Positions 2,577 to 20,394 of a stretch of 64,000 nucleotides of DNA are shown in pieces. Both the position numbers and the translations under genes were made by a program. The notes beneath the pieces were generated by a model. The model was given only the letters and a program-made list of their open reading frames with translations. It searched no databases and was not told where the DNA came from. The DNA is from Lysobacterales bacterium (GTDB lineage: Bacteria; Pseudomonadota; Gammaproteobacteria; Xanthomonadales; SZUA-5): assembly GCA_022844165.1 (NCBI GenBank), contig JALHMH010000001.1, forward strand, positions 64,001 through 128,000. Direction: 5' to 3'. Each line of letters opens with the position of its first letter. The stretch's first letter is position 1.

Positions 2577-3046
2577 GACAGATCAAATTTCGCGCCGATC
2601 AATCCACGGTTTCGTTGCAAACCGACACCCGACTTCTCGATGCGCTCTTGGCGCATCAAGTGCCGGTGAAGATGGTCTGTGGTGGTCGCGGTTTGTGCGC
2701 TACCTGTCACGTGTACGTCACCGCCGGCGAAGCCAGCCTCACCCCTGCATCGCAGCGCGAACAGTTGGCTCTGAGCGTACTCACCGGCGCTCAGAGCAAC
2801 AGTCGGCTGTCGTGTCAGGCACGGGTGATCGGCGATGGTGTGGAAGTGGCGCTTCCCGATGGCATGTACGTCGAGTCGTTTACTGAACTGGAATCGTTGA
2901 TCGGGCAGCGCACGTCGATGCCGATCTTGCATCCGGTGACCGGCGAGACGCTGGTCGAGGCGAACAAAATCATCATTCGCTCTTCAATCATGCAACTGAA
3001 GGACGTCGATTTCAGTATCGGCGACGTCGGCACGTCCAGGGCATGA
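2573..3046 (+). CDS. 2Fe-2S ferredoxin with C-terminal extension
   Basis: CGGRGLCATC...RLSCQ cluster motif. ATG at 2573 overlaps the upstream TGA. The ~60 aa tail (LPDGMYVES..LIGQR..ILHPVTG..KIIIRS) resembles that of the cyanobacterial Slr0148-type ferredoxin. Confidence 0.9.
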   Translation: MRQIKFRADQSTVSLQTDTRLLDALLAHQVPVKMVCGGRGLCATCHVYVTAGEASLTPASQREQLALSVLTGAQSNSRLSCQARVIGDGVEVALPDGMYVESFTELESLIGQRTSMPILHPVTGETLVEANKIIIRSSIMQLKDVDFSIGDVGTSRA

Positions 3047-3090: not shown

Positions 3091-3750
3091 ATGGCTATCG
3101 ATCCAGTACTAGGCGGCGTCCAGGGTTTCCACAATTACTACACGCCCGACGAGTTTTTTCGCCACGATCCCACGGAGGGCTCGATTTATCTGCGCGATGG
3201 CCAGCGCGCGGCCAAGATTTCCGAGGCCTTCATCAACGGACTGCACACCGGAATCGAAGAGGAAGTCGGCAACAGCTCAGGACTGCTGATGTATCGGTGC
3301 GGTCAAGAGTGGGCGCTTGCCGACATGAAACGTTTCTCAGCGCGAATGCGCCAGGAGTTCGGTGGCGGAAAGCTCGACATCTGGCAGATGAACCCGGCTT
3401 TCGTTTGGGAGTGCTGGTGGTGGCCTTTGGCGATCGAAGGATACGGCGGATGGACCTTGGATCTGAGCTTTGCGGACAAGGACATTACGCTGATCGAAAT
3501 CCGCAACTCGGCCGTCGCCAAGTCCATGAAGATGGTCGGCCGCCCGGTCTGCCACATGTACGCGGGGTTGTTTGCCGGCGCCTTCAGCTTTTTTCACCGC
3601 AAGGAGCTGCAGAGCATTGAGGTGCAGTGTTACGCGATGGGCAACGACGTCTGCAAGTTCCTGGTCGGCGACGAGAAACGCGTCAACGCTGCAGAATTCT
3701 GGCGAGAAGAGGGTGCCAGCGCGCAAACCATTCGGGAAAATCTCGCCTGA
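3091..3750 (+). CDS. V4R (4-vinyl reductase) domain protein
   Basis: GYGGW helix-turn, PVCHMYAGLFAGAFS, EVQCYAMGNDVCKF with the C/E/C/C metal ligands typical of V4R. Confidence 0.9.
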   Translation: MAIDPVLGGVQGFHNYYTPDEFFRHDPTEGSIYLRDGQRAAKISEAFINGLHTGIEEEVGNSSGLLMYRCGQEWALADMKRFSARMRQEFGGGKLDIWQMNPAFVWECWWWPLAIEGYGGWTLDLSFADKDITLIEIRNSAVAKSMKMVGRPVCHMYAGLFAGAFSFFHRKELQSIEVQCYAMGNDVCKFLVGDEKRVNAAEFWREEGASAQTIRENLA

Positions 3751-3762: not shown

Positions 3763-5928
3763 ATGATGACAACTCCTAACAGTCAATTGCTTGAACTCGG
3801 CGCTTTCTTTCGCGAAGTTGTCGAAGGCATCGCCGATAGCCAGGCCGGGCGTCGCCCCCCACCTAAGGCCGAGATGCCGACTCTTGATGGCGCTGTGCTG
3901 CTCGACTCGATGCGGGCGATCGTTACCGAGGAACTGCAAGGACTGGCCAGGACGCAGCCACTGCTCGGAAGTGATGATGCCGCGCTACGCGAGGCCCAGG
4001 CCGTGGCCGCCGACAGCGCGCGCCGTATCGAAGAGCTTGAGCTTGCCCACCAGCAGCGCGAGTTGGCGCTGCGCCAGCAGTTGCACGAACGCTACGAGGA
4101 GCAACTGCAAGCCGAACGCAGTCGCCAGGCGCTGGTTGACGAGCGAGTCATCACGCTCGAAAACCGGTTGGATGTCAACGAGACCACCAGACAAAGTCTC
4201 GAATCCGAGCTTCGTGAGCGCAGCGATTTGCTGGCGGTGCTGCGTTCCGAGCTCAACCACATGCATGAGCAGGCGCAGCATCTGGAGCGCAACCATGCGC
4301 TACTGGTCGGCCAGATCGATGAACAAACCGAGCGCGATCGCCAGCGGCAGGCGGAGTTCGATGCTTGCCAGGCGCAACGGGACGAAGCGCTGCGGGCGTT
4401 TGCGCTGCAGGAAGACACCGTCGCTGTCTTGAATGCCGAGCTGGAACAGGCGCGCAACGATCGGCAATCTCAACAGACCAGCGCCAACAGCCTGCGGCTT
4501 GAGTTCGAAGCGAAATTCGAAGAGCGAGAATCGGAAGCGCTGCACATGCTGCTGGCCGCAGAGCAGCGCGCGCGTGAGGATCGTCAGACGTACATAGAAC
4601 AGATCCATCAGTTGACCGAAGCGCTCGATGCCGAGCAACTGCAAAATGCGCAACTCAAGGACGCGATTCTGGTGCTGGAGGCGCAGGCCGAAAACGCTTC
4701 AGACGTGCAGGCATTCGCAGCGGAATTCCAGGCCAAAGACCAACAGCAACAATCCGAACTGAGCGAATTGCGCGAGGCACTGAAGGCCGGGCAAGAGCTC
4801 GCCGAACAGCTTCAGAGCGAACTCGCGTCGGTGCAAACCGCTGCGGTTGCAGACGCAGAGAGGTTGGCGGAGCAACTGCGAGTACGAGAAGAAGAACTGC
4901 AAGTCAAGACCGCCGAATTGGATGGCGCACTGCTCGGCGAACACGCACGCACCGCTGAGTTGCAAGCCGAAATCGCGACACTGCGCGAAGCGCTCGATTC
5001 CGAATCAGCAGCGCGTGCCGCTGACCGAGCACTTCTCGAGGCGCAGCTCAGCACGGAACAAACGCTTACCGTGCAGCTGCAGGCCAACATCGCGCGCCTT
5101 GAGCAAGAGGCACAACACCGGCAGCAGGCCGACGATCGACGCTCGGAATTGACTCAGGCGTTGGATGCCGAGAGAGCGCAGACCGCTCGTCTGAAGACCG
5201 AGATCCTGCAGTTCGAAGCGCGCGTAGCAGCGGCTGCCGAAGCGAACACCAGAATGCTGGCCGCGGTGCAGGAGCTGAGCAGCAAACAATTGCTCGAACT
5301 TGGCAGCGCGCTGAAATCTGAGCAGACATTGACTGCGCAACTGTTGGCCGACATTCAGGCATTGGAAGCACGATCGAATGAGCAGGATCTGGCGCTGGCG
5401 CAAGCGCAAGCGGCTGCCGATGCCGATCGTCACGCACGGCTCGAAGCGCAAGCCGCAGCTCAGGCGCGGGAGCAGGCGCTGATCGAAGCACGCTCGCAGT
5501 TGCAAGCGCTCAACGACCAACAAGAGGCGTCCAGGAAGCGCGCGTCAGTGGGATTCCTGGCGGGGCTTGGAGAGACACCGCCGGTTGATGCATCGCCGAG
5601 CGCAGCGCAGGCTGCCATCGCCGCTGCACCTGTCGCCCCTGCTCCTGTGGCCGCTGCGGTACAAGCCGCTGTAGCACCGATGAGCGCTGTGGAGTTAGAG
5701 CGCGAACAGAAGCGACTGGCGATTCTGAGCCAAAGTACCGATGTGGCCACGGCCAAACTCTATTTCCAGATGCTGCCCTGGCAAGGACTCAAGACCTCTC
5801 GAATTTCTGTTGCCGCAAATGAAAGGGGCGACCCCAGTGGCACGCTCGCTGGTTTTGCTGTCGCCGCCGCTACCCAACAGGCAATCGATTCCAGTCTTTC
5901 AACTCAACCGACGAAGGCCAGACCATGA
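3763..5928 (+). CDS. Long coiled-coil protein, function unknown
   Basis: 721 aa E/Q/A/L/R-rich heptad sequence, an Ala/Pro linker and a short C-terminal YFQMLPWQG motif. Coupled to the next gene by an ATGA overlap. Confidence 0.75.
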   Translation: MMTTPNSQLLELGAFFREVVEGIADSQAGRRPPPKAEMPTLDGAVLLDSMRAIVTEELQGLARTQPLLGSDDAALREAQAVAADSARRIEELELAHQQRELALRQQLHERYEEQLQAERSRQALVDERVITLENRLDVNETTRQSLESELRERSDLLAVLRSELNHMHEQAQHLERNHALLVGQIDEQTERDRQRQAEFDACQAQRDEALRAFALQEDTVAVLNAELEQARNDRQSQQTSANSLRLEFEAKFEERESEALHMLLAAEQRAREDRQTYIEQIHQLTEALDAEQLQNAQLKDAILVLEAQAENASDVQAFAAEFQAKDQQQQSELSELREALKAGQELAEQLQSELASVQTAAVADAERLAEQLRVREEELQVKTAELDGALLGEHARTAELQAEIATLREALDSESAARAADRALLEAQLSTEQTLTVQLQANIARLEQEAQHRQQADDRRSELTQALDAERAQTARLKTEILQFEARVAAAAEANTRMLAAVQELSSKQLLELGSALKSEQTLTAQLLADIQALEARSNEQDLALAQAQAAADADRHARLEAQAAAQAREQALIEARSQLQALNDQQEASRKRASVGFLAGLGETPPVDASPSAAQAAIAAAPVAPAPVAAAVQAAVAPMSAVELEREQKRLAILSQSTDVATAKLYFQMLPWQGLKTSRISVAANERGDPSGTLAGFAVAAATQQAIDSSLSTQPTKARP

Positions 5929-6524
5929 GCACAGTCGCGGCAAATGTTCGTCCCCAGAGCCAGACGCTCAGAAAGCACGCGTTGCTCAAGGAACTCTTTC
6001 GGCGTGCGGAAGGCAGGCATTGGAGCGAAGAGGAACTTAGTCTCTACGCCAAGAGCGCCCCGGAATTCATGGAACGCGTACATGCCGCAAGGGCAATCGC
6101 TCGACATGAAACGGCGGTTGTCGAAAAGACCGTGACCGAAATATTCGCCAGCTACCCATTCACCAAGTACCACGCGTTGGCCGAAATCAAAGCGCCGCGC
6201 GACATCACACAGGTCAGTGTGTACGCCACGGCCGCCATGCTGATGAACGATCACGACTGGTTTCGAGATCGGGTGTTGTTGTGGCTCAAAACCATGCTGC
6301 AGGCATTCGTCTTCCCCAAGCGCGAAGCGGCCAGTCAGCGGACCTTATTCGGCAACCGGGCGGCCACCAACAATCCCGCCGAGAGCATGCCGCAGCGTAA
6401 ACAGGCCGTGTTCGAAACCTACGTTGTGCTCAAACGCAATTACCAGCAGGCGCTTGAGGCCGCGGACTACGCGCAATTTGAGCCTTACCTGCAACAGATC
6501 ATCGACACCCTGTCGGCGGACTAA
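5925..6524 (+). CDS. Allophycocyanin/phycobilisome-protein-like globin-fold protein lacking Cys
   Basis: AEGRHWSEEEL (cf. AxGRYLSxxEL), RVHAARAI, KAPRDITQVSVYATAAMLMND..FRDRVLLWLKTML (cf. CxRDxxxxLRYxxxAMLxxD). Confidence 0.8.
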   Translation: MSTVAANVRPQSQTLRKHALLKELFRRAEGRHWSEEELSLYAKSAPEFMERVHAARAIARHETAVVEKTVTEIFASYPFTKYHALAEIKAPRDITQVSVYATAAMLMNDHDWFRDRVLLWLKTMLQAFVFPKREAASQRTLFGNRAATNNPAESMPQRKQAVFETYVVLKRNYQQALEAADYAQFEPYLQQIIDTLSAD

Positions 6525-6530: not shown

Positions 6531-7229
6531 ATGAGCGCGATGATGAATCAAGCACCAGTCTTGCCAGAAGCCGGCGGCACCGCGTTGACCGCCGGTACGT
6601 CCAGTGCGCGTTTTGCTTCCATGTTGGAGATCGATAGTCTGAACTTCGATTTGTACGAAGGCACGGTGGTCGACCCCAGCGATACCCGCAGCATCTTCCT
6701 GGCAACCGACATTTTGCGTGGCATCCACGCCGCTTTGTCCTATGAAGCTGGCCAGGCTTGGACAATCGTGCTCTATCGCTGCGGTTTTTTATGGGGACAA
6801 AAGACCCTGCGGCATTTCGTGCGCCAATCGCAAGGCGCCTTCGGCGCAAAGTTCGAGCAGATCAGCGTCGACGTTTTCTTGAGCAACCTGATCACTTTCA
6901 TGAACTTCAATGGCTGGGGTGTGCTCAGCATCGACATGCAGCGCGCGACGACGCATGGCGTGCTCCGCATGGAGTTGCGCAAGAGCATTTTCGCCGATGC
7001 CCTCGACCATCTCCGCGAACGCGTGGACTTCATGGTCGCTGGAATGCTGGCTGGCGTATTCAGCGACCTGTCGCGCGCCAGCCTGGCGTGCATTGAAGTA
7101 AGTTCTTCGCTGACCGGCGGCTCGAACTCTGTGTTCCTGTTGAGCGCCAGCGAGCGCATTGAAGCGCTGCGCCCGGCATTGGAAGGCGGCGCCGACGAAC
7201 GCGAGCTGATCGAGCTTCTGTGTGGCTGA
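6531..7229 (+). CDS. Second V4R domain protein (metal-ligand Cys largely lost)
   Basis: LYRCGFLWG, NGWGVLSID, DFMVAGMLAGVFS, CIEVSS..SVFLL. Similar to 3091..3750. Confidence 0.85.
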   Translation: MSAMMNQAPVLPEAGGTALTAGTSSARFASMLEIDSLNFDLYEGTVVDPSDTRSIFLATDILRGIHAALSYEAGQAWTIVLYRCGFLWGQKTLRHFVRQSQGAFGAKFEQISVDVFLSNLITFMNFNGWGVLSIDMQRATTHGVLRMELRKSIFADALDHLRERVDFMVAGMLAGVFSDLSRASLACIEVSSSLTGGSNSVFLLSASERIEALRPALEGGADERELIELLCG

Positions 7230-9162
7230 GTTCGACGCCATCCCGGAGCGATATGAGGTGCTCGGCGAATTGGCGACCGGGGCGCAAGGTGTTGTGTTGC
7301 GTGCTCGCGATCGACACAGCGGCAGTGCTGTGGCCATTAAGCAGTTTTCGATCGGTGCGCGCACCGCTTACCTGCGGGAATTGGCGGCATCGCTCGACAA
7401 TCGGCACGACAATCTGCTGACGCCGCTGGATACGTTCTACGGCGCGGACGGCGTCGGGTTCGTGGTTTACGAATTCCTGGAAGCAGGTACCTTGCGCCAG
7501 GCGATGACGCCTGGGAAACCGTTCGCCTCACTTCTAATCCTCCGTTGTGCGGAAGATCTGCTCAAGGCCTTGGTCAACTTGCACGATCGCAAGTTGATTC
7601 ACTGCGACATCAAACCAGAGAACATTTTCGTCCGGCACAATGCGCAAGGTCAGATGGAGTCGTTCTTGCTGGGTGATCTCGGATCGACCTGTTCTATACG
7701 CGAGGCTGAAGAGGGCGACTACCGCAGCGGGTCGCCCGCCTACACAGCGCCCGAGCGCTTCTATCAGAAGTTTCAGCCCAATAGTGATCTGTATAGCCTC
7801 GGCGTTCTGCTGTTCGAATTGGCCAGCGGTAACTTGCCCTTTATCGGAGGCCCAAAAGCCATGGCGCGCGCGCACCTGCAACAGCCCGTTCCGCTGAATC
7901 AAATCCAGTCTTCTCACCTGCGCACCTTGATCGGCGGGCTGATGGAAAAGGAACCATCGCGACGGATCGGCTCAGCAAAAAGAGCATTGCAAATGCTGAA
8001 CCCAGAGGACGCGGTACAGGGTCCATCGAATTTGCCCATTTCGAATGCTGACTTAAGAACACCAGTGAATAAGCCTACGCAAAAGCAAGCCAATATCGGC
8101 CGACGCCCTCCGATTGAAGTGGCGAGCACCATCATCGAGTCCGGTTTCGCCCGTTTGCACATCGCGAGCGTTGGCGATAAACCCTTGTTGCTGGTCGAGT
8201 CCAGTACCGATCTGGCAACCCTGGCTCTGGCGCCACAATCGCGCCCGCGCCTGTTCCCGAAATCGGGAAACGCACGACTGCTGGGTACGTCGGAGTTGCT
8301 TTACCAGGTCGAATCGTCGATCAACCTGTTGAACTTGAGCAGCGGCGCCAATCGCGTGCTGCACGACCGCTGTGTCGGCGCCATCGATTTTACCTGCGAC
8401 GGGCAACGGTTGCTCTGGCGGACGCGGCGCAGCGCGCATCGGATAGACCTGGAAACGCGTGCCGAGAGTTCGTTCTTGCTGGCGCACTATCTGCTGGATG
8501 CCCGCTCGCACTTGCTTCCGAGCGGCAGCTTCGCGGTCTCAACCGGGGCCATGAACAACCAGATTGCGCTTCGCAGCAGCGACGGCACAGCGAAGGCGGT
8601 GCACGAACTGGATGGTCCGGTCATCGAGATCGTCAACGATTTGGAGACTTTGCTGGCGCTGACGCTTAACGTCAATCAGGCGGACAGCCTGACGCTGTGG
8701 CGAATCTCCGAGTATTCCAAACCCCAACGTCTGGATGTCCCGACCGGCTCGCGCTTTTTTGCGACCACACCAGGTCACATATTCTGGCTCGACAATGGCA
8801 CCCAGATCGTACAGTGCGGCATAGGTCTTGCGCCGCGCGAGGTTTTCAGGGCGGGCGAGTCGATCGACGGCTTCGCGATCTCGCCGGATCATGCCTGGCT
8901 CGCGACCTGGAGCAATCTCGGTGACAACGTCTCACGAGTTCGGGTCTATTCCGCGGCGAATGCCAACGAGGCCGTGTCCCGGAGCGATGAGCGCAGTCAG
9001 CTTCGCGCACCGCCAGGCAAGGAATCCCTGCTCCGTTCGACAGAATCGATGCCACCGGCGGCGCAGGTGAGCGTCAAGAGAACGAGCAATCCGGTTGAAC
9101 ATTCGACTGGATCGACAAGAACCCGCTCCGTCAACGACTCCAGCGAGACGCACACGCCATGA
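7222..9162 (+). CDS. Hanks-type Ser/Thr protein kinase with C-terminal beta-propeller-like domain
   Basis: GAQGVV, VAIK, IHCDIKPEN, DLG, GSPAYTAPE, DLYSLG. The C-terminus is beta-rich and ends in FAISPDHAWLATW (WD40-like). Confidence 0.92.
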   Translation: MAEFDAIPERYEVLGELATGAQGVVLRARDRHSGSAVAIKQFSIGARTAYLRELAASLDNRHDNLLTPLDTFYGADGVGFVVYEFLEAGTLRQAMTPGKPFASLLILRCAEDLLKALVNLHDRKLIHCDIKPENIFVRHNAQGQMESFLLGDLGSTCSIREAEEGDYRSGSPAYTAPERFYQKFQPNSDLYSLGVLLFELASGNLPFIGGPKAMARAHLQQPVPLNQIQSSHLRTLIGGLMEKEPSRRIGSAKRALQMLNPEDAVQGPSNLPISNADLRTPVNKPTQKQANIGRRPPIEVASTIIESGFARLHIASVGDKPLLLVESSTDLATLALAPQSRPRLFPKSGNARLLGTSELLYQVESSINLLNLSSGANRVLHDRCVGAIDFTCDGQRLLWRTRRSAHRIDLETRAESSFLLAHYLLDARSHLLPSGSFAVSTGAMNNQIALRSSDGTAKAVHELDGPVIEIVNDLETLLALTLNVNQADSLTLWRISEYSKPQRLDVPTGSRFFATTPGHIFWLDNGTQIVQCGIGLAPREVFRAGESIDGFAISPDHAWLATWSNLGDNVSRVRVYSAANANEAVSRSDERSQLRAPPGKESLLRSTESMPPAAQVSVKRTSNPVEHSTGSTRTRSVNDSSETHTP

Positions 9163-9803
9163 CCAACCACACTGCGCCCGCCATCAATGGCGCCACGCCC
9201 TCCGTGCATTGCGTCTTTTACACTCACCCGTGGGCCATCGATGCGCTGCGGGTTGCCAAACTTGGCGAACTGGATCGGACGCTGCTCATCGAACTGGCGC
9301 GGCGCTCGCAACTGGCGAGCTTGATCAACACCCAACAACAGCTGCGGTCTGGCGTGAGCGGCATCCTGCGCGATCCCGGTGAACTCGACGGGCTGATCGT
9401 CACGACACCGCGGTTCCTGGTACCCGTGATCCTTGCGCCCAATCCTTGCGTGCCGGATGCAACACAAGCCTCGGCGATCGCTCTTTTGCCATCCGTGAAG
9501 TCGAGCTTCAATCGCTTCATCGTGTTTGTACATCTGTCAGAGGCAATGAACTTCCGCTACGCGTATCCGTATTGCGATCGTTTTTCGTTTCTCTGGGACG
9601 TCGCAGACCCTCCGATGTTCAAAATGGGCGATATCGGCGCGATGCTGCGCGATCTGGGTGTGCTCAGGCGCGAATCCTGGGGAGGATTTTACTTGTTCAA
9701 TCATCCACGGCGGCATGTGAGCAATCTGGACAGCCGGCTGAGCGAATTGCGAAAGGTGATGGGGCAGGCGAAAAAGCCCAGCGCTCTCGCCGCAACAGCC
9801 TAA
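9159..9803 (+). CDS. Hypothetical protein
   Basis: 214 aa ORF coupled to the kinase by an ATGA overlap. No family recognised. Confidence 0.6.
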   Translation: MTNHTAPAINGATPSVHCVFYTHPWAIDALRVAKLGELDRTLLIELARRSQLASLINTQQQLRSGVSGILRDPGELDGLIVTTPRFLVPVILAPNPCVPDATQASAIALLPSVKSSFNRFIVFVHLSEAMNFRYAYPYCDRFSFLWDVADPPMFKMGDIGAMLRDLGVLRRESWGGFYLFNHPRRHVSNLDSRLSELRKVMGQAKKPSALAATA

Positions 9804-9814
9804 GGCCCGCGAGC

Positions 9815-10300
9815 ATGTGGGACTTAAAACACGGCTTGGGAATTTCCGCACTTCCGACCCGGTCGTCGCTCAGGCTGTTTAAGACCCTGGGATTCACCGA
9901 TCTGGTCAACGTCTCCGGCAGCGCAACGGAAAACTTGTACCTGGCAGCCGATCTCGATGGTTTGGCCTTCAGCGACTATCCATTTGCCGATGTACTCTCG
10001 ACCGCTGGCGCGGTTACGGAAATCGTTGAGAAGCTTGGTCCGGCCGGGCTGTTGGAGTTTAAGAAGGCTGCAACTCAAACCGCCAGCTGTCTGCAGCAGC
10101 AGCGTCGCGTCATCGTGTTTTGCCACCTCGGCGTTGGGCGTTCACCGGCCGTCTCGACGATTGCTTTGATGCTCGGGCGGGGCTATTCGTTAGACGAAGC
10201 TGTTGATGTGATCGTGAAGTTGCGACCCGAGGCGGTTCTTAGCGACCCGGTCGTTGCATTTGTCCAACGGATGCATGCGGAACTCGTGAGTGCCGCATGA
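9815..10300 (+). CDS. Dual-specificity/tyrosine protein phosphatase (CX5R)
   Basis: VIVFCHLGVGRS active-site loop followed by LM..GYSLDEAV..IVKLRP. ATG at 9815 chosen just after the upstream stop. Confidence 0.88.
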   Translation: MWDLKHGLGISALPTRSSLRLFKTLGFTDLVNVSGSATENLYLAADLDGLAFSDYPFADVLSTAGAVTEIVEKLGPAGLLEFKKAATQTASCLQQQRRVIVFCHLGVGRSPAVSTIALMLGRGYSLDEAVDVIVKLRPEAVLSDPVVAFVQRMHAELVSAA

Positions 10301-10980
10301 CGCTCAATAGCGTACTTGAGCGCAGTACGGAGCTGGCCGTCGCTGCCGGCTTCAGGCGAAAGCCGCTCGATCCCGAACTGGCGCAGGCGGAAAAGCCTCT
10401 GCCCAGCGGCAACCTCAGCTGTAACGCGCAAAGCTGGGAGGCCGATGCCGCTGAGCTGCGCGTGGTGTCGATCGAATCGCCCAAGATCCAGGTGATTTCC
10501 TGTTTCGTCTATCCGCATTCGGCCATTGCGTTGCCGCTTTATGCCATGGAGTTGGTACAGCTCGGCGCAAAGCCCATCGTTGCGGTCATCGATGCGGTAG
10601 CGCCAGCGCACGACCCTGCGCAGGCCATCGCACAAAACTGGCTGGAGCAAGCGCATTGTGTGTATGCCGACCTCAAGAATGCCGACGATCCTCCACCGTG
10701 GTTTCAAGCGTGTCGCAGCGGTCTGGACTTTTTCATCCGCCCTGGTGACCAGACGGAATTGCGACGCGTCGGTTCCTTGCACGTCGAGCTGCTGGGGCGG
10801 TACTTGCACGCGATCCCCGATGCCTCGCAGAGGACGGTTGCCGCTGCCCACCGCTACGAAGAATTTTCGCGCCACTACAAAGATCATCATGCCGCGAATT
10901 CGCCGGGTTTACCGTTGATGCAGAAGTCCTTCGGCCCGCAGTGGACGGAGCGTTTCATGCAGCAGTGTTTCTTTCTTTAG
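10297..10980 (+). CDS. Ferredoxin-dependent bilin reductase family protein (PcyA/Peb/RCCR-like, divergent)
   Basis: IQVISCFVYP...LPLYAMELV...AVID, PPWF...S..FFIRP and C-terminal PG..LMQKSFGPQWTERFMQQCFF match the FDBR pattern (..FGxEWxxxYxxxxLF). Confidence 0.82.
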   Translation: MTLNSVLERSTELAVAAGFRRKPLDPELAQAEKPLPSGNLSCNAQSWEADAAELRVVSIESPKIQVISCFVYPHSAIALPLYAMELVQLGAKPIVAVIDAVAPAHDPAQAIAQNWLEQAHCVYADLKNADDPPPWFQACRSGLDFFIRPGDQTELRRVGSLHVELLGRYLHAIPDASQRTVAAAHRYEEFSRHYKDHHAANSPGLPLMQKSFGPQWTERFMQQCFFL

Positions 10981-10990: not shown

Positions 10991-12163
10991 ATGCATCGTT
11001 ATCGATATCTGATCATCGGCGGCGGGATGGCCGCAGATTCGGCGCTCAAGGGCATTCGCATGTCCGACCCCACGGCTCAAGTGGGGCTGGTGTCCGAAGA
11101 ACTGGACAAACCCTATAACCGCCCGCCGCTGTCGAAAAAGCTCTGGGATGGACTTCCATTGGAGGAAATCTGGCGCCCGAATCGCGGCTCCCAAGTCAAC
11201 TTGCATCTGGGCCGGCGTATCGTCGCGCTCGTCCCCTTGCGCAAGCAGGCGCGCGATCAGACCGGCGAGATCTACGCCTTTGAACAAGCACTGCTGGCCA
11301 TCGGCGGCAGCCCAAAGCGCATCTCAGGCGATGACGAATCCGTCATGTATTTCCGCACACTCGCCGATTACCGACGCCTGCGCGCGTTGTCGCGCGAGGC
11401 CGAACCGATCACGCTGGTTGGCGCCGGGCTGATCGGCACCGAACTTGCCGCGTGTCTGCGCAAGGCGGGTTCTTCGGTCGATCTTTATTGTGGAAAACGT
11501 GGTCTTGTTCGGTCGATTCTGCCCGAAGTCTTGTCTAATGAACTGGCGCGAAGCCTTGATGGGCATGGCGTTCGGCTGCACTTCTTGAGCGTCTCGAACA
11601 TCCAGAAGGCAAACGGCACCCAACAACTCAAGCTGAGCGACGGAAAAATGGTGACGGCCAAACGCGTCGTCGCCGGTCTGGGCCTGGTCGCGAACACGCA
11701 ACTGGCCAAAGATGCCGGCATCGTGTGTTCCAATGGCATCGACGTAGATGCCTCGCTCAGAACGTCGATACCTGGCATATATGCCGCCGGCGATTGCGTG
11801 AACTTCTGGTGCTCAACCCTGGGTCGGCGACTGAGTTCGCAGCATGAAGAACACGCCAATTTTTCGGGTATCGCTGCCGGTCGCGCGATGGCTGGAAAGA
11901 CGGTCGACTACTCGCCGTTGCCGTACTTTTACTCACGCGTTTTCGATCATGCATACGAGGGGATTGGCTGGGTCGATACGTCGCTCAAACACCATGTCGT
12001 GGCACCGCGAGGACCGATGGAGGCTACGGTTTATTATCTGCACGACAACCGCGTCGTCGGCGTGTTGTATTGGAATACGCGGGCCGATCTGGAGCGGGCC
12101 ACCGAGCTTATCGAGGCCAAACGTCCGTGCACGCCAGCCGAGCTGGTCGGTCAGATCCAGTGA
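10991..12163 (+). CDS. FAD-dependent NAD(P)H:ferredoxin reductase-like oxidoreductase
   Basis: IIGGGMAA, PYNRPPLSK, LVGAGLIGTE, TSIPGIYAAGD and PYFYS motifs. Confidence 0.9.
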   Translation: MHRYRYLIIGGGMAADSALKGIRMSDPTAQVGLVSEELDKPYNRPPLSKKLWDGLPLEEIWRPNRGSQVNLHLGRRIVALVPLRKQARDQTGEIYAFEQALLAIGGSPKRISGDDESVMYFRTLADYRRLRALSREAEPITLVGAGLIGTELAACLRKAGSSVDLYCGKRGLVRSILPEVLSNELARSLDGHGVRLHFLSVSNIQKANGTQQLKLSDGKMVTAKRVVAGLGLVANTQLAKDAGIVCSNGIDVDASLRTSIPGIYAAGDCVNFWCSTLGRRLSSQHEEHANFSGIAAGRAMAGKTVDYSPLPYFYSRVFDHAYEGIGWVDTSLKHHVVAPRGPMEATVYYLHDNRVVGVLYWNTRADLERATELIEAKRPCTPAELVGQIQ

Positions 12164-12208: not shown

Positions 12209-15200
12209 TCAGGCATGGGCAAACTGCCTTTCTTTTCCTTGTTGGCCAGCCAATTCTGCAAAGTGCGTCATCAACCCGCGGAGTCTCACTGCCTTCAATG
12301 GTTTGTACAGCAGGTGGTGCCCGTGCTTCTTGCAGCGTTCCCGCAGAGCGTCGCTGTGATCGGCCGTAATTAAAGCGCTACCGATTAAGGAACTGCCGAG
12401 CCGCAGTTGCAAAGTCCTGAGCAGTTCGATACCCAACTCATGGGGACCCAGCTGCTGATCGACCAACAGCACATCGGGCACGAATGTGGCAATCGTTGCC
12501 AGAGCCGCAGCGCCATCTTCGGCAGTCTCTACGTCTACGCCCCAACCACTCAACAACGCGCGCATCGATCGTAAAATGTCTGGATCGTCGTCGACGCAAA
12601 GTACCTTCATCGGCGTCGGCAAGCCATCGGCACTGGCAGCTGCCATCTCGTGGCCTGGCGATGCTTCTGTTTCTCGCCACTCGCCCAGCAAAGGCACAGC
12701 AACTCGAAAACAGGAGCCACGGCCCGGCTTCGACACGACAGTCAACGAATGGCCCAGCAGGCGGCATATCCGTTCGCAAATCGCCAAACCCAGACCGCTG
12801 CCGCGGTCGCCCCAGGGCGATCGCTGGTTCACACGGGAAAACTCTTCGAAGACCTTCGATTGGTGTATGGCATCAATGCCGATACCGGTGTCCCACACCT
12901 CGATCAGCAGCTCGCCGCGGCGTTTGCGTGTGCCCACGAGCACCCCGCCTTCAGCAGTGTATCGGAGCGCATTCGCCATCAGGTTCTGCACCACGCGACG
13001 CAATAGTCGGCGGTCGCTTTGCACCAGCCATTTACAGGGCGGAACCCGCAACTGAAGTTGCCGGGATGTCGCCAATGAGGACATTTGCGCGGCCAGGATC
13101 TCGAGCTGGGGATAGAGCGCAAAAGGCTCAATTTCGGTCACTAAAGCGCCAGAATCGAGTTTGGTCACTTCGACCAGCACATCGATGATCTCTTCTGCCG
13201 CGATCAGCGCCAGATCAATACGTTGGGCGGCTTCCCGCACATTGCTGCCAATCGCGGGCAGTTCGCTGAGCGCCGAGGCATAGATGCGTGCAGCGTTCAG
13301 CGGCTGCAACAAGTCGTGACTGGCTGCGGCAAAAAAGGTCGCCTTTCGATCCAGCGTGGCTTGCGCAGCGGGTTTGGAGATGGGCGCGGCAGCCATGCCA
13401 AGTTGGGCGGTATCCAAAATGGTCTTCACCAGATCCAAGGTGTGCCGCGTGGTTTGGCAGACAACGTCCAACGCCTCTCGCACTCGCGGCGTTTGCGCGA
13501 GTTTCAGCGCCATTTCGGTCTGGCCCAACATGATCGTCAGTGGCTCGTGCAATTCGCGACCTACCTGACCCAGCACTGTCGATTTCGCCTGCACAAGCGC
13601 TACAGATTCGCTCAGCGAATCTTCGAGCACACGGTTTTTCTGCTCCAGCCCTGCCCGAATTCGGCGCCGTTCGCTGATGTCGGTCAACACCGAGATCCAA
13701 TGCGTTCGCCTACCGAGTGCATCTTCGACCGAGGAAACGCGCACGTCCGCCCAGAACGTGCTGCCATCCTTGCGGTACAACAAAATTTCATCCTCGAACT
13801 TATCGCCGCTGGCGAGTTTTTCGCGAATATTGTCCATTGCGCCGGCACCGGATTCTGGGCCGAACAGAAAAGTGGGTACGGTGCCAATGACCTCGGCCAC
13901 ACGATAACCCGTCACGCGCTCGAAAGCCTCGCTCGCCATCAAGATGCGCCGTCCGACGCCCGGCGTGGGTTCGGCTTCACTGATCAGGATCATCACGTTG
14001 CTGTTTGCTGTGCTGCGATGCAGGAACTCAAGTTCGATGCGGGTTCGCTGCTCGCGACGGCCCTGAATCAGACTGCGCAGCGATTCCGCGAAACTCAGTT
14101 CATCGCTGGACCACGGATCGGCGGCAAGGCCGGCATCTCGGAAACGCGCGTTGCTCGCGAGCCGAAACCAAAGCAACCTGCTGTCCAGAGGGTCGCCCAC
14201 GTCTGCCAAAAGCAGTCCCGCAAAATCTGCCCCACCGCGTTCGGCTGTTGCGGGCCATCGCAGTGGCCTTGTGCCGGGCTGCGTTGCTGCGGGCAATCGA
14301 CCGATGACGCGCCGCAATTCGTTCTCTTGTGGGCATAGACCGATACACACACAACGCTTTTGGCTTAGCAGTGCAAAACCGTCTGCCTGCAGTGCGCTCA
14401 GCAACAGTTCGGCTTTGCCGTCCGCCGTCAAGTTCTCCAGGTCGCCGTCGTCGGTACATTTGGCAAACGCCTCCAGCGCGGCCTCGCGTTCGCCATTCCT
14501 TTTGCGGGCAACGCTGATCTGATATTGATCAATTCGATGGGCCACCTCCTTGCACATGCGCCAGAAAGCCAGGCGGGCCGGGCCGCTCAGCAATTTGGGC
14601 CGACGCAATTGCTGGCATTCGATGACGCCCCACAAAGTGCCGCGTACGACCAGCGAGCCGGTCGACAGCGCTGTGATACCCGTGCGCCGCAGTTGTTCCA
14701 ACGACGGGTCGACGCGCAAGCTGGACCCGCTGAGGTCGCCCGCGCCGAGTGTTGCGCCACGCAGCAGCGGCGATGCGGAGCAACTGAGATCGGCAAAATG
14801 CTCGATACCTGACTTGCGCAAGCGGTCCCTGAACTGCTTGCTGTATATCGATGCCGTGTCGCTCGAGTCCGGGATCGACTCAATCTTCGAGTGGCGCGCC
14901 TGCGCAATCACCGAGGCATCGCCGTGCACATCGAACCGACGCAACAGTACACGGTCGAAACACAGGGACTTTCGGATGACCTTGACAGCCTTCATCAAGA
15001 AAGCGTCCTGCTGATCGGACTGCGCCGATTCGGTGATAGACTCAAGCCCGGAAAAGAGGCGCTGCAACGATTGCGCAGAAGCCCGTCGACAGCGCTCCAG
15101 ATCCAGTATCGCCATGCCTGCCCGGACATGCAGCCAGCCGTAACAGGATCGGCCAGATTCGCGCAGAGTCAACACCAGATACGAATCCGGCGGCGCACGC

Positions 15201-15394
15201 CGACGCGAAACCGCGGCTTCGAGTCGGCGCCAGCTCCGCGGCGTGAAGAGCTGAGTCGCGGGCTGGCCGATCAGCGCCGCGCCGTCGTAGCCGAGTATTT
15301 CGGCTGTGGAGGTACTCGCTGCCTGAATGCGCAAGCTCTCGATATCGAGCACAAGCACCGCACCGTGCGGCTGAATTGCGTGAGCTGCGGGCAT
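12209..15394 (-). CDS. Bacteriophytochrome-like hybrid histidine kinase (PAS-GAF-PHY-like, PAS, HisKA, HATPase, REC)
   Basis: IQPHG, FDRVLL..F, LWGVIEC, LLWFR; PAS with YRKDGSTFW; SHDLLQPL H-box; NALRYT, DTGIGI, GLGLAI; receiver VDDD..D..KP. Confidence 0.88.
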   Translation of the reverse strand: MPAAHAIQPHGAVLVLDIESLRIQAASTSTAEILGYDGAALIGQPATQLFTPRSWRRLEAAVSRRRAPPDSYLVLTLRESGRSCYGWLHVRAGMAILDLERCRRASAQSLQRLFSGLESITESAQSDQQDAFLMKAVKVIRKSLCFDRVLLRRFDVHGDASVIAQARHSKIESIPDSSDTASIYSKQFRDRLRKSGIEHFADLSCSASPLLRGATLGAGDLSGSSLRVDPSLEQLRRTGITALSTGSLVVRGTLWGVIECQQLRRPKLLSGPARLAFWRMCKEVAHRIDQYQISVARKRNGEREAALEAFAKCTDDGDLENLTADGKAELLLSALQADGFALLSQKRCVCIGLCPQENELRRVIGRLPAATQPGTRPLRWPATAERGGADFAGLLLADVGDPLDSRLLWFRLASNARFRDAGLAADPWSSDELSFAESLRSLIQGRREQRTRIELEFLHRSTANSNVMILISEAEPTPGVGRRILMASEAFERVTGYRVAEVIGTVPTFLFGPESGAGAMDNIREKLASGDKFEDEILLYRKDGSTFWADVRVSSVEDALGRRTHWISVLTDISERRRIRAGLEQKNRVLEDSLSESVALVQAKSTVLGQVGRELHEPLTIMLGQTEMALKLAQTPRVREALDVVCQTTRHTLDLVKTILDTAQLGMAAAPISKPAAQATLDRKATFFAAASHDLLQPLNAARIYASALSELPAIGSNVREAAQRIDLALIAAEEIIDVLVEVTKLDSGALVTEIEPFALYPQLEILAAQMSSLATSRQLQLRVPPCKWLVQSDRRLLRRVVQNLMANALRYTAEGGVLVGTRKRRGELLIEVWDTGIGIDAIHQSKVFEEFSRVNQRSPWGDRGSGLGLAICERICRLLGHSLTVVSKPGRGSCFRVAVPLLGEWRETEASPGHEMAAASADGLPTPMKVLCVDDDPDILRSMRALLSGWGVDVETAEDGAAALATIATFVPDVLLVDQQLGPHELGIELLRTLQLRLGSSLIGSALITADHSDALRERCKKHGHHLLYKPLKAVRLRGLMTHFAELAGQQGKERQFAHA

Positions 15395-15425: not shown

Positions 15426-16127
15426 CTAACCGTCGCCAATCGACTGAGTGGCATCGAAGGTTTGCATCATCAACGCAACCTGCGTGCGATTGCGCGCGTC
15501 CAGTTTTTGCATGATCGACTTCATGTGCACCTTGACCGTCGCTTCGGTGATCTGAAGTTGTGCTGCGATCTGTTTATTCAACATCCCGGTTGCCAACATG
15601 CTGGCAATACGGAACTGTTGTGCGCTGAGCGCTCCAATCTGGCGTGCCGCCGACTGCTCTTTCGAGCTCAATTGTGGTACGAACCCCAACTCGCTCAGTG
15701 AAGCAGGAATGTAGCGCGAACCGGACAGCACCTGGCCGAGCGCCTTGGAAATTTCCCGCAACGGTGCGGATTTGGGAATGAAGCCCGCTGCGCCCAGCTG
15801 CAGAGCCCGGCGGATCGTCAGTGGCTCTTCCTGCGCCGAGATGACGGCAACGCTCAGGCCAGGCGACTTCGCGCGCACGTGGATCAGGCCCGACAAACCA
15901 TGCGAGCCGGGCATGTTCAAGTCGAGCAAAACCAGATCGACGTTTTGATCGCGATTGAGCAGATCCTGAAGGCAATCCAGCGTATCGGCCTCCAACACGG
16001 ACGCCGACGGGAAGTTGGCGCCTACACAAGAAACCATCGCGTGCCGGAACATCGGATGGTCGTCCGCAACGATAATCGTCCCGACTGCCTTGATGTCGAT
16101 CAGGTGGGGACTGAACAAACTAGACAT
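15426..16127 (-). CDS. NarL/LuxR family response regulator
   Basis: IVADDHPMFR, LLDLNMPG, GAAGFIPK and a LuxR HTH (NKQIA..L.ITEATVKVH). Start set at ATG 16127, which overlaps the heme oxygenase end. Confidence 0.93.
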   Translation of the reverse strand: MSSLFSPHLIDIKAVGTIIVADDHPMFRHAMVSCVGANFPSASVLEADTLDCLQDLLNRDQNVDLVLLDLNMPGSHGLSGLIHVRAKSPGLSVAVISAQEEPLTIRRALQLGAAGFIPKSAPLREISKALGQVLSGSRYIPASLSELGFVPQLSSKEQSAARQIGALSAQQFRIASMLATGMLNKQIAAQLQITEATVKVHMKSIMQKLDARNRTQVALMMQTFDATQSIGDG

Positions 16128-16848
16128 GCACGTGCTGCGCTGCGTGCGCAAATGGGCAGCCCAACGATCCTTGGCGTGCCGGGCGTGGCGCAGGCATGGC
16201 GACTTCGCCAAGCCATGCGCTCAGCGAGCCGAAGACGAAGCGCGCAACGTCGATCATGCGATTCTCATCGAGGTCGGTTGTGTTTTCGATCTGTTGAATG
16301 GTGCGTCTCCATACCTGCCCGTGCGCGCCGTCATAACAATCGAAGTATGTCACCGCGTTAGCGACAGTCTGACCCAGATGTTCGTTGAGCGCGCGGCGAA
16401 TCACTTGTCCGCCCAAGGTGGCGCCTTCGAACACATACACCACGCCGGCGCGCGTCGACTCATCGTGGCAATCCAGTTCGTCGAATACTGGCGAACTGGT
16501 ACTCCGGGGGAAGTCGCGCATACCGACGGCGGCGAGATCGGATTCAAGCTTCGGTGTGCGCTGGCAGGCGAGGTTGAAGACGGCATGTTGTGCCTGCGCC
16601 ATACGCAACTCCAGGGGTCCCACATAACCCAGCAGCCGCAGCAGCAACAGCCGATACTCATTCAGGCTGTAATCTGGCTCTAGCAGCCGGCGCATGCAGG
16701 GCACGGCCTCGATCATGTCGTGGGCCTGGCGTGTGTTTAGTCGCAAGCGCTGAATGCGCGATGTGGAGCGATCGCCATGCAGATCGCCCGATTCGCCGGA
16801 TAGCGACGCGGCTGGCAAAGTCGTTAGCAACACAGCTTTGGATCCCAT
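16120..16848 (-). CDS. bphO: Biliverdin-producing heme oxygenase
   Basis: LRLNTRQAH (proximal His) and YVFEGATLGGQVI distal helix. Co-oriented with a phytochrome-like kinase. Confidence 0.9.
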   Translation of the reverse strand: MGSKAVLLTTLPAASLSGESGDLHGDRSTSRIQRLRLNTRQAHDMIEAVPCMRRLLEPDYSLNEYRLLLLRLLGYVGPLELRMAQAQHAVFNLACQRTPKLESDLAAVGMRDFPRSTSSPVFDELDCHDESTRAGVVYVFEGATLGGQVIRRALNEHLGQTVANAVTYFDCYDGAHGQVWRRTIQQIENTTDLDENRMIDVARFVFGSLSAWLGEVAMPAPRPARQGSLGCPFAHAAQHVHV

Positions 16849-17348: not shown

Positions 17349-17873
17349 ATGGACCAGCAGTTTCCTGGAGATATCGCGCCGCTGATGCGCGCATGCGCCG
17401 ATCTGGCGCGACGACGTGCCGACGATCTGGCGCGTGTCCGGACATCGGTAAGCCAGCTCAAGAACAATCTCGCGCGCACGCTGGTGCAGTTCGACCATGC
17501 GCGCAATGAGAGCGCGGCGCGAATTCAGGCGCTCCGCGCGCAGACGACGCAGTCGCTTGCCGATAACCGTCGTGAACGCAGCCAACAGCTTGCCGACTTC
17601 CGCGCGCGACTGGCAAAAGACCATGCTCGTACCACGGAGCAAACGCGCCAGGCCCTGGGCAGTTTTCGCGACGCGCTGCAAGCGGCGGTGAGTGACATCA
17701 AGAAACAAACTCAGGTTGCAAAGCGTGCGCGGTTCAAGACCGGTTCGTTCCGTCATGCGGCGGCACCGGCCAAGCCACCGAGCCGTCCGACATCTGTCGC
17801 AGACACGGCACCCATCGCGCGCAAGCGCAACCGGTCCGGCGCGAACGACTCGCGTAGTTTCCTCGACCTATGA
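17349..17873 (+). CDS. GvpC-like helical gas vesicle protein
   Basis: Lies between gvpA and gvpN. Amphipathic R/A/Q-rich helices with recurring L..F and a basic tail. Confidence 0.55.
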   Translation: MDQQFPGDIAPLMRACADLARRRADDLARVRTSVSQLKNNLARTLVQFDHARNESAARIQALRAQTTQSLADNRRERSQQLADFRARLAKDHARTTEQTRQALGSFRDALQAAVSDIKKQTQVAKRARFKTGSFRHAAAPAKPPSRPTSVADTAPIARKRNRSGANDSRSFLDL

Positions 17874-19075
17874 GCACCTTTGCAGGCGTGGACGAGTTGG
17901 ATCCCGCGGGGCAAGTCTCCGTCGAACCCAGCGCTGGTTTTGTATTGACGCCGGCGGTTTCGCTGATTGCGGATCGCGCGCTGGCGTATCTGCGTGCCGG
18001 GTATCCCGTCCACCTCTGCGGCCCAACCGGCACCGGCAAGACCACGCTGGCATTTCATGTTGCCAGCAAGTTAGAGCGCCCAATCGTTCTGCTGCACGGC
18101 GATCATCAATTGACCAGCGCTGATTTGGTCGGTTCGCCCTCTGGCACGCGCACTTCGCGCGTGGTCGACAACTACATCCGGTCGGTTGTTCGCACCGAGG
18201 AGGAGCGGCGCGAGTTGTGGGTCGACAATCGGCTCACGACGGCATGCCGCTACGGGCACACGCTCATCTACGACGAATTTAATCGCACGACCGCGGAAGC
18301 CAATAACCCGCTGCTTAGCGTCTTTTCCGAAGGCATTCTGAATTTGCCGAAGGCCAGCGACGGGCGCGAAAGCTATCTGCGCGTGCATCCAAAGTTCGCA
18401 GCAATATTGACGTCGAATCCCGAAGAGTACGCTGGCGTGTTTCGCACCCCAGACGCCTTGCTGGATCGCGTCATTACCATCGTGCTCGACTATTACGACG
18501 GCGAAACCGAGACCAGTATCGTGGCAGCGCGTACTGGCGTCGATTTCGACTTCGCGCATCAGATTGTCGCGATGGTGCGTGGCTTGCGCAACGCCGGTAG
18601 CAGTGCACATCGCCCAACCATTCGCGCCGCCATCACCATCGCCAAAGTACTCAAACAGTCAGGGCTCCCCATTTCCAGCGAACCGGTCGTACGCTCGATT
18701 TTTGCCGATGTGCTCGGCGCCGATCCTTTCAAGATCTTGTTGAGCTCGACGGCACCCGGTTCTACCGGAGCGGCGGCCGATTCCCCGGCGTCGGACGAGT
18801 TCAAACCAGCCGATCAAGATTTTGATGCGGCGCCGTCAGTCGTGGTCGCCCCTGATGAGCCTGGTACAAGCGCGATGCGGGCGGAAGAAGCCCCCGACAG
18901 TCCGATACTGGAAGTGTCTGGCGCAACGATGCCAGCGGAGCTGGCGCGGGCCATGCCAGCCGAACCGCTGGATGAGCGCGAACAGAAGCGCGCGGCCCGG
19001 CAGAGAAAACGTGGCGGCCAGCCGGCAGCTGCCTGGTTGAATGCGTTCGACGAACGCAGCCCACAAACTTCCTGA
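17870..19075 (+). CDS. gvpN: Gas vesicle AAA+ ATPase GvpN
   Basis: GYPVHLCGPTGTGKTT, WVDNRLTTAC, YDEFNR, SNPEEYAGV, DALLDR. Confidence 0.97.
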   Translation: MSTFAGVDELDPAGQVSVEPSAGFVLTPAVSLIADRALAYLRAGYPVHLCGPTGTGKTTLAFHVASKLERPIVLLHGDHQLTSADLVGSPSGTRTSRVVDNYIRSVVRTEEERRELWVDNRLTTACRYGHTLIYDEFNRTTAEANNPLLSVFSEGILNLPKASDGRESYLRVHPKFAAILTSNPEEYAGVFRTPDALLDRVITIVLDYYDGETETSIVAARTGVDFDFAHQIVAMVRGLRNAGSSAHRPTIRAAITIAKVLKQSGLPISSEPVVRSIFADVLGADPFKILLSSTAPGSTGAAADSPASDEFKPADQDFDAAPSVVVAPDEPGTSAMRAEEAPDSPILEVSGATMPAELARAMPAEPLDEREQKRAARQRKRGGQPAAAWLNAFDERSPQTS

Positions 19076-19086
19076 GCGCCGAAGCG

Positions 19087-19383
19087 ATGGCCAACTTTAA
19101 ACGCGTCAAGTCCACCATACCGAGCCGCACCTGGAGCGGGCGCAAGGTCCAGGTCAGCAACCACGCGACGTACTTGAAGTTGAGCTTCTTGTCGCAAGAG
19201 CGACGGCGTCGTCAGGTAGAGTTGAACAATCTTTCGGCACGCATCGAGTTATTGAAGAAGCGCATGGTGACGATCGATCAGGAGATCGAAAAGCTAAGCG
19301 CTCAAATCGTCTCGCCGGCGCAGAGCCATGTCACAGAAGCCGATCCCGAACCGCAGCAGCGCGGTATATCGATCAAGTATTGA
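19087..19383 (+). CDS. Small coiled-coil gas vesicle accessory protein (GvpV-like)
   Basis: Directly after gvpN. YLKL..L..ERRR..EL coiled coil, ends ISIKY. Confidence 0.55.
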   Translation: MANFKRVKSTIPSRTWSGRKVQVSNHATYLKLSFLSQERRRRQVELNNLSARIELLKKRMVTIDQEIEKLSAQIVSPAQSHVTEADPEPQQRGISIKY

Positions 19384-19389
19384 GCAATC

Positions 19390-20390: not shown

Positions 20391-20394
20391 TGAG

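Follow-up and report, generated by a model that had tools for sequence, protein, structure and literature searches.

A probable pre-1 bilin reductase and its conserved gene cluster in a Lysobacterales genome

The reductase gene and its fold

In this study, we have investigated a stretch of 64,000 nucleotides from the genome of a Lysobacterales bacterium (GenBank assembly GCA_022844165.1, contig JALHMH010000001.1, positions 64,001 to 128,000 of the forward strand), to which we refer as the window, and within it a gene for a bilin reductase of the ferredoxin-dependent type (FDBR) that is embedded in a larger cluster (Table 1). The start of this gene overlaps the stop of an upstream phosphatase open reading frame and the next gene, which encodes an FAD-dependent ferredoxin reductase-like protein, begins 10 nucleotides past its own stop. 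A second operon on the opposite strand, with genes for a heme oxygenase (HO), a LuxR-type response regulator and a phytochrome-like kinase, converges on the operon containing the FDBR. The genes for a 2Fe-2S ferredoxin, two V4R proteins (A and B), a globin of the BBAG type and the HO are all located within 17 kb.

The identity of the FDBR is reflected in both its sequence and its predicted structure. The Pfam family Fe_bilin_red (PF05996) matches residues 22-226 with an E-value of 9.7e-17 and a score of 61.8 bits at a gathering cut-off of 31, thereby covering positions 17-227 of the 228 positions of the profile. A comparison with all PDB sequences by phmmer yielded 16 matches at E <= 1, headed by nine entries of Synechocystis PcyA and its variants (E 2.5e-12 to 2.2e-11, with 4.2e-12 for 2d1e). 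An AlphaFold2 model based on an alignment containing 26 homologues (mean pLDDT 94.6, pTM 0.91) contains the alpha/beta/alpha sandwich found in PcyA, PebA, PebS and HY2. In a Foldseek search, this model superimposes on PcyA chains with TM scores of 0.82-0.84 (E about 1e-13, about 21% identity), on GtPebB with 0.87 and on tomato HY2 with 0.83, while PebA is also found among the matches. The scaffold recognized in the original prediction, which was made from the sequence alone, is thus borne out, since profile and structure search both place the protein in the FDBR fold. The open reading frame encodes a real FDBR and is no chance match.

Active-site signature and relationship to the pre-1 lineage

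FDBRs of non-photosynthetic and heterotrophic bacteria were described in the main text of Rockwell, Martin and Lagarias (2023; PMC10151467) as pre-PcyA, including a lineage termed pre-1, and the view of the original prediction that oxygenic phototrophs and phages are the main known sources of such enzymes is therefore out of date. As summarized in the main text of Frascogna et al. (2026; PMC13446030), pre-1 proteins carry a Glu in place of Asp105 of PcyA, most often a Thr or Asn in place of His88 and typically a Ser at the position of Asp256 of HY2, whereas Glu76 is without conserved counterpart. Members of pre-2 and of pre-3 in contrast retain Asp105, with pre-2 found in a different three-gene context (PMC10151467).

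In the phmmer alignment, the sequence I-L-His88-C of PcyA is located above V-I-Ser68-C of the window protein, C-Asp105-I-V above M-Glu85-L-V and Asp220, the equivalent of Asp256 in HY2, above Ser202. The same equivalences were obtained with MAFFT in an alignment of 182 sequences and with hhalign against a phage PcyA profile (probability 97%), in agreement with the motifs ISC at the His88 strand and ELVQ (residues 85-88) at the Asp105 position that had been read initially. The description of the protein as divergent was thus apt, since the catalytic His and Asp of PcyA are both replaced. The protein combines the pre-1 features of a Glu at the Asp105 position, the absence of a His at the His88 position and a Ser at the position of HY2-Asp256, with Ser68 differing from the commonest pre-1 residues Thr and Asn.

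The distribution of these residues was analyzed in the 182-row alignment, which comprises the window protein, its best 150 cluster representatives, word-search matches, cluster members, the proteins of nine genome loci, a phage PcyA and PebS, excluding fragments below 185 and proteins above 340 residues, but including near-copies, so that its rows are not independent. The representatives were drawn from 246 among 1.84 billion that match the window protein at E <= 0.001. The position of Asp105 is occupied by Glu in 172 of the 182 rows and in the other 10 by Gln (6), Asn (1) or Asp (3), with two of the latter being the PcyA and PebS anchors, leaving a single Asp in the 180 non-anchor rows. At the His88 position, Asn is the residue of 97 of the 172 Glu-type rows, followed by Ser with 36 and Thr with 29. 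Ser is present in 37 rows of the full alignment, including the published pre-1 protein of Agitococcus lubricus, and the starred branches of a FastTree phylogeny force at least eight changes for this state, which identifies it as a recurrent variant and not as a singular departure. Glu85 and Ser202 are invariant in all 26 homologues and the former is one of 35 alignment columns that are invariant across this set, which reaches down to 32% identity, whereas the 12 closest homologues all share Ser68 and Glu60. The odd active-site residues are thus typical of the pre-1 family and do not reflect new chemistry.

A relationship to a named member of the lineage was established by a scan of one genome per species with a single peptide pattern derived from the homologue alignment, which identified 10 loci, although it recovered neither Methylovulum nor any pre-2 of Myxococcales. 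One of these loci (L008) is from A. lubricus DSM 5822 and its FDBR, which is identical to the representative P0064, was equated by organism with PTQ89276, a protein named as pre-1 in the Methods of PMC10151467. With 36% identity to the window protein, it reads I-I-S-C-F and A-M-E-F-V in the MAFFT alignment and thus carries the same Ser/Glu/Ser signature. In the FastTree phylogeny, the window protein is part of a clade of 24 rows (support 99), in all of which Ser68, Glu85, Ser202 and Glu60 are fixed. The neighbors of this clade are Thr-type proteins of two metagenome-assembled genomes (MAGs), one labeled Xanthomonas and one assigned to Lysobacterales, whereas the Agitococcus protein is located outside. 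We also carried out an IQ-TREE quick search (LG+C20 PMSF) on 53 rows hand-picked to span the FastTree clades together with five phage-type PcyA and PebS as outgroup. Here, the window and Agitococcus proteins share a clade of 37 rows (SH-aLRT 100), while the five PcyA rows are separate (98), a grouping on which FastTree with all 182 rows agrees. Outgroups were taken from phage records because the best 150 representatives contain no canonical PcyA, as no FDBR model matched when the 147 other representative matches were compared with NCBIfam at E <= 1e-40. A tblastn search of phages only returned three weak PcyA matches (E 0.8) besides chance matches to Bacillus phage polymerases. Of the families proposed for a phylogeny in the original prediction, our trees cover PcyA and PebS and separate the protein from both, but they do not support its novelty, since it is grouped with a published pre-1 protein.

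The same relationship is apparent in the genomic context. According to the main text of PMC10151467, gene clusters of pre-1 and pre-3 combine an HO with an Fe-S protein, a pair of V4R proteins and either one or two BBAGs, which are globins of the phycobiliprotein family, and all of these components, with one BBAG, accompany the FDBR in the window cluster. Together with the FDBR fold, the Glu/no-His/Ser signature and the non-cyanobacterial host, which are shared with the published members MCC5789364 (from an Opitutales MAG), POZ53557 (from Methylovulum psychrotolerans) and PTQ89276, we thus regard it as very likely that the window protein belongs to the pre-1 lineage of pre-PcyA. Its exclusion from pre-2 and pre-3 is based on the Glu/Asp signature and the gene context rather than on topology, since our trees are without named rows of either lineage.

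Composition and distribution of the gene cluster

Table 1. Genes and residues of the window, with positions in window coordinates.
Feature	Position	Strand	Basis and remarks
Unknown protein, at least 857 residues, open at the 5' end of the window; first conserved cluster gene	3-2576	+	No Pfam or NCBIfam family
2Fe-2S ferredoxin, presumed electron donor of the FDBR	2489-3046	+	Pfam Fer2 E 3.5e-11; NCBIfam fdx_isc E 1.9e-14, under cut-off
V4R protein A	3091-3750	+	Pfam V4R E 3.2e-17
Unknown 721-residue protein, possibly coiled coil	3763-5928	+	No Pfam or NCBIfam family
Globin of the BBAG type, paralogous to phycobiliproteins and presumed to accept the bilin	5925-6524	+	Pfam Phycobilisome E 5.8e-10
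V4R protein B, divergent paralogue of V4R A	6531-7229	+	No Pfam hit; BLASTP to V4R A 26% over 194 residues, E 2e-17
Ser/Thr protein kinase with long C-terminal extension	7222-9162	+	Pfam Pkinase E 4.8e-34
Unknown 214-residue protein between kinase and phosphatase	9159-9803	+	No Pfam or NCBIfam family
Dual-specificity-type phosphatase, 161 residues from ATG 9815 within open reading frame 9446-10300	9815-10300	+	Pfam DSPc E 6.3e-08, 32.9 bits, just under cut-off of 33.5
FDBR, probable pre-1 type pre-PcyA, 227 residues, ATG start	10297-10980	+	Pfam, PDB search, model, trees
FDBR codon Ser68	10498-10500	+	
FDBR codon Glu85	10549-10551	+	
FDBR codon Ser202	10900-10902	+	
FAD-dependent ferredoxin-NAD(P)+ reductase-like protein	10991-12163	+	Pfam Pyr_redox_2 E 6.5e-44, Reductase_C E 9e-4
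Phytochrome-like hybrid histidine kinase, PAS2-GAF-PHY-PAS-HisKA-HATPase-receiver	12209-15394	-	Pfam
LuxR-type response regulator, likely from ATG 16127 within open reading frame 15426-16211	15426-16127	-	Pfam Response_reg and GerE, E about 4e-18 each
Heme oxygenase, biliverdin source	16120-16848	-	PF01126 E 1.7e-10, over cut-off, match at 16213-16752
GvpN-like AAA+ protein, candidate	17870-19075		Translation, by eye
GvpL/F-like protein, candidate	19659-20390		Translation, by eye
Two-domain CDC48-like AAA ATPase, candidate	21921-24071		Translation, by eye

The conservation of the cluster was investigated by tblastn with its 14 proteins against the 10 genome loci and against six metagenome loci, the latter with FDBRs that are 59-62% identical to the window protein. 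The order of ferredoxin, V4R A, globin, V4R B, kinase, (214-residue protein) and FDBR is found in six of the 10 genome loci, which belong to two gammaproteobacterial MAGs and four Verrucomicrobiota and thus to two phyla. In the metagenome loci, the full order, including the protein of at least 857 residues and the FAD reductase, recurs wherever the contig reaches, and the phytochrome-like kinase, the regulator and the HO are also found in two of the six. The ferredoxin (56-79% identity) is present in six genome loci and three metagenome loci, the latter being all whose contigs extend that far. V4R A is the best conserved protein of the cluster (63-94% identity in related loci), the globin shows 34-71% identity and V4R B is conserved after the globin gene. 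The kinase occupies the same place in seven genome and four metagenome loci, and matches to the 214-residue protein were likewise found in seven and four. The HO is 40-54% identical in L002, L014 and L019, and in the window genome (4.68 Mb, 99.97% complete) its gene is the only match to PF01126.

Directly downstream of the FDBR, the FAD reductase, whose nearest NCBIfam models are the ferredoxin-NAD+ reductase subunits of dioxygenases (HcaD at 2e-51, under cut-off), is found in L002, L003, L014, L015, L017, L018 and L019. Its pairing with the ferredoxin is conserved in gammaproteobacterial and metagenome loci, whereas tblastn did not find the reductase in the stretches of the Verrucomicrobial loci compared. 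Both proteins could form a self-contained electron supply for the FDBR in a non-phototroph.

Besides components known from pre-1 clusters, the kinase and the 214-residue protein, and in gammaproteobacterial loci also the DSPc phosphatase, hold their place between V4R B and the FDBR in Pseudomonadota and Verrucomicrobiota, as seen in L002-L005, L007-L010, L014 and L016-L018. The terms 'phosphatase', 'FNR', 'NADPH' and 'ferredoxin reductase' do not occur in the main texts of PMC10151467 and PMC13446030, and 'kinase' is found there only in the title of a reference. The association of a kinase, the 214-residue protein, a phosphatase and a ferredoxin reductase with pre-1 clusters of two phyla is new relative to both main texts. 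Their supplementary figures may cover part of it. A parallel to the combination is provided by the slr0144-slr0152 cluster of Synechocystis, which is traced back to pre-PcyA clusters in PMC10151467 (main text) and which combines a BBAG globin, a V4R pair, a ferredoxin (Fd5) and, as its last gene, a Ser/Thr kinase (SpkG) in one operon. Loss of SpkG abolishes the phosphorylation of Fd5, as stated in a review. In contrast to the window cluster, the Synechocystis operon contains neither an FDBR nor an HO, and the window kinase is likened to SpkG by operon content only. As a separate observation, the 1068-residue representative P0183 combines Pkinase (E 5e-92, over two stretches) with Fe_bilin_red as its C-terminal domain (residues 859-1067, E 4.4e-17) in one fusion, a possible clue to a joint action of kinase and FDBR, although this single sequence could be a gene-calling artefact. 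A dedicated search for longer, fused forms of the FDBR found none at E <= 0.001, which is weak evidence.

For two proteins of the cluster, the start is placed inside a longer open reading frame. Relatives of the phosphatase, the start of which was taken from the translation, only align from about residue 124 of its open reading frame, and relatives of the LuxR-type regulator align from residues 36-46. The three proteins without assigned family are found at equivalent places in related loci. Homologues of the protein of at least 857 residues (36-52% identity) are located upstream of the ferredoxin gene in L002, L003, L014, L017 and L018. Of the 721-residue protein, only the ends are conserved, as tblastn matches parts of it at the equivalent position in L002, L003, L014 and L016-L018, and Atlas points no more than weakly to coiled coils of the crescentin kind (score 0.90-0.91, with low recognition). 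Both proteins are conserved in the cluster as it occurs in Gammaproteobacteria. For the 214-residue protein, Atlas points weakly to P-loop proteins resembling BcsQ/ParA (0.92, with 146-152 features in common). Beyond the HO gene, the translations of the region 17870-24071 look gas-vesicle-like by eye.

The other genome loci show less of the cluster. The Agitococcus locus, which starts 2 kb upstream of its FDBR, contains, as far as it extends, the C-terminus of the kinase, the 214-residue protein, the phosphatase and the FDBR, the short locus L010 contains the FDBR and only a weak match to the 214-residue protein, and in two Thiomargarita loci the FDBR is alone. In one of the latter, the MAG locus L011, the FDBR match at 8116-8791 consists of two pieces that are read in different frames and overlap in their residues (4-120 and 103-226), pointing to a frameshift or to a fault in the assembly. 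Of 58 further genomes from the genus, family and order of this bacterium, two contain an FDBR homologue, both with 46% identity, and the one genome of the same genus, with 99% completeness, contains none. The cluster is thus a patchy accessory trait.

A proposed route from heme to phytochromobilin and its alternatives

The expected activity of the FDBR is illustrated by a homologue described in the main text of PMC13446030, the pre-1 protein MCC5789364, which reduces biliverdin to 3(E)-phytochromobilin in vitro and whose variant E91Q instead produces the 3(Z) isomer. This protein, the only pre-1 member assayed in vitro in that source, carries Asn74, Glu91 and Ser202 at the three signature positions. 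Since the window protein keeps its Glu and Ser and differs by the Ser at the His88 position, we expect 3(E)-phytochromobilin as its product, with somewhat better than even confidence. Our assumptions on substrate, product and the role of the Glu are all adopted from the literature on this one assayed homologue. In the proposed pathway, the HO would open heme to biliverdin IXalpha and the FAD reductase would use NAD(P)H to reduce the 2Fe-2S ferredoxin, an NAD(P)H-driven chain being needed because a heterotroph is without photosystem I to reduce ferredoxin. The ferredoxin would in turn supply single electrons to the FDBR, where the A-ring diene of biliverdin would take up two electrons to yield phytochromobilin, most likely its 3(E) isomer, with Glu85 placed in the central acidic position held by Asp105 in PcyA. 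The bilin would then be passed to the BBAG globin of the cluster and perhaps to the V4R proteins. Although PcyA (Synechocystis, 2D1E) has the same sandwich fold for binding biliverdin and likewise carries an acidic residue in the center, it catalyzes a four-electron reduction, whereas the D-ring vinyl group is expected to remain untouched by the window protein. Collectively, we consider it probable that the FDBR is a pre-1 pre-PcyA acting in such a route from heme via biliverdin to phytochromobilin.

The acceptor step of this route is weakened by the residues found in the candidate proteins. In BBAGs, the bilin is attached at a CXRD motif (PMC10151467, main text). At this site the window BBAG reads K-A-P-R-D, and there is no Cys anywhere in the protein. 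The sequence APRD is common to the BBAGs of L002, L003, L014 and L016, while the Cys is kept in the close metagenome locus L017 and in the four Verrucomicrobial loci. The best solved relative of the phytochrome-like kinase is the BphP of Xanthomonas campestris (E 3e-27). The kinase of the window begins five residues before its IQPHG motif and is thus without the N-terminal Cys segment, with its ATG located 31 nucleotides from the stop of the upstream gene. In the alignment to BphP, the DIP motif is changed to IYS, the His following the SP motif to Ser and a later His to Gln, and we take the DIP motif and both His to be conserved residues of bacteriophytochromes. A relative with 38% identity found in L014 and L019 keeps the N-terminal Cys. 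From these residues, it appears that the kinase of the window may not bind bilin in the canonical manner.

Several points weigh against the proposed route. Its least certain part would be the acceptor step, because the BBAG is without Cys and the phytochrome-like kinase without bilin-binding residues. The branch that joins all Glu-type rows against PcyA is supported by only 83-85, with long outgroup branches flagged, and besides named pre-2 and pre-3 sequences our trees are also without named PcyX, PebA, PebB, HY2 and RCCR (red chlorophyll catabolite reductase). The authors of PMC13446030, who assayed one enzyme per clade, warn in its main text against generalizing. The first pre-1 protein tested in vivo, POZ53557, conferred almost no chromophorylation although its cognate HO was active (PMC10151467, main text). 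Finally, the FDBR is the least conserved cluster protein among close relatives, with 59-62% identity compared to 68-94% for globin, V4R A and FAD reductase.

The latter two points would be expected if the window protein were a poor or inactive reductase that mainly serves to bind or deliver bilins in the globin/V4R module, as would the lack of the Glu in the 10 rows of the alignment mentioned above. However, the invariance of 35 columns including Glu85 and the activity of MCC5789364 in vitro (PMC13446030, main text) argue against a loss of function, and a non-redox role makes little sense with a ferredoxin and a ferredoxin reductase in the same operon, latter of which directly follows the FDBR. 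We thus regard this explanation as unlikely. A canonical PcyA, PebA or PebB is far less probable still, as is an enzyme of the RCCR type that would use a chlorophyll catabolite as substrate. PcyA is the nearest solved structure to the window protein and provides its best-scoring NCBIfam model, but the scores remain far under the curated cut-offs, with 44.5 compared to 206 bits for PcyA (equivalog NF002760), 36.9 compared to 263 bits for PebA and 20.7 compared to 327, 19.2 compared to 283 and 15.7 compared to 303 bits for three PebB models, and His88 and Asp105 of PcyA are changed to Ser and Glu. The likeness to RCCR, which the original prediction had suggested for the Glu, finds no support in the comparison of the whole protein, as RCCR chains superimpose with TM scores of 0.63-0.67 in contrast to the 0.82-0.84 of PcyA and are absent from the 16 PDB sequence matches at E <= 1. 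A literature search on an equivalent Glu in RCCR found nothing relevant, and there is no chlorophyll-pathway gene among the cluster genes examined, although the genome was not searched for such genes.

A different explanation concerns the product, as the change at the His88 position together with Glu60 might confer another regiospecificity or a further reduction on the Ser68 subclade, leading for example to phycoerythrobilin, 18(1),18(2)-dihydrobiliverdin or phycocyanobilin. Neither Ser68 nor Glu60 varies among the 12 closest homologues or within the 24-row clade, with Glu60 being variable elsewhere in the tree, and phmmer, MAFFT and hhalign all set Glu60 under Glu76 of PcyA, the proton donor for the reduction of the D-ring vinyl group. 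The product of an algal HY2 was switched from phycocyanobilin to phycoerythrobilin by an Asn-to-Asp exchange at its His88 equivalent, and results from one enzyme per clade may not generalize (PMC13446030, main text). However, Ser is common and scattered at this position, as reflected in the forced changes described above, and it chemically resembles the residues Thr and Asn found in other pre-1 proteins, while His88 and Asp105, both required by PcyA, are missing. The models also disagree with the role of Glu60, since Glu56 of the phage PcyA model (strands 50-59 and 64-72) is located directly across the hairpin from His67, whereas in the window model (strands 52-60 and 64-73) Val56 or Val57 is found across from Ser68, with Glu60 at the tip of the hairpin. 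Table 2 of PMC13446030, where the Glu76 equivalent precedes the His88 equivalent by 11 residues in pre-1 and PebS, likewise leads to Val57. In light of these hairpin registers and this spacing, the equivalence of Glu60 and Glu76 is probably an alignment artefact, and we regard a different product of the subclade as doubtful. In an extended form, the Ser68/Glu60 clade would make a bilin other than 3(E)-phytochromobilin, for example by D-ring or 15,16 reduction with Glu60 as second proton donor, which is passed non-covalently to the Cys-less BBAG and the degenerate phytochrome-like kinase, in a module that is switched by the kinase and phosphatase of the cluster through its own ferredoxin, by analogy to the proposed action of SpkG on Fd5. 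We consider this scenario as speculative and improbable.

With 3(E)-phytochromobilin as expected product, the suggestion of the original prediction that the protein might make a non-standard bilin was right in spirit, since the family makes a bilin other than phycocyanobilin, although this chemistry is already published (PMC10151467, PMC13446030, main texts). The window FDBR is thus a useful specimen which leaves the picture of the family unchanged. Judged from its sequences, the Ser-type pre-1 subclade itself appears to be new relative to the main texts of both papers. So far, only an Asn-type pre-1 protein was characterized in vitro, and the cluster offers a Ser-type member together with its presumed cognate electron donors. 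Through its conserved kinase and phosphatase, a connection to SpkG and Fd5 of the cyanobacterial slr0144-0152 operon becomes testable. Enzymes of the pre-PcyA type, together with the globins and V4R proteins that accompany them, have been proposed as ancestors of phycocyanobilin synthesis and of phycobiliproteins. Well-assembled clusters from near-complete genomes, of which the window contains a complete and contiguous example, help to define the content of this ancestral module.

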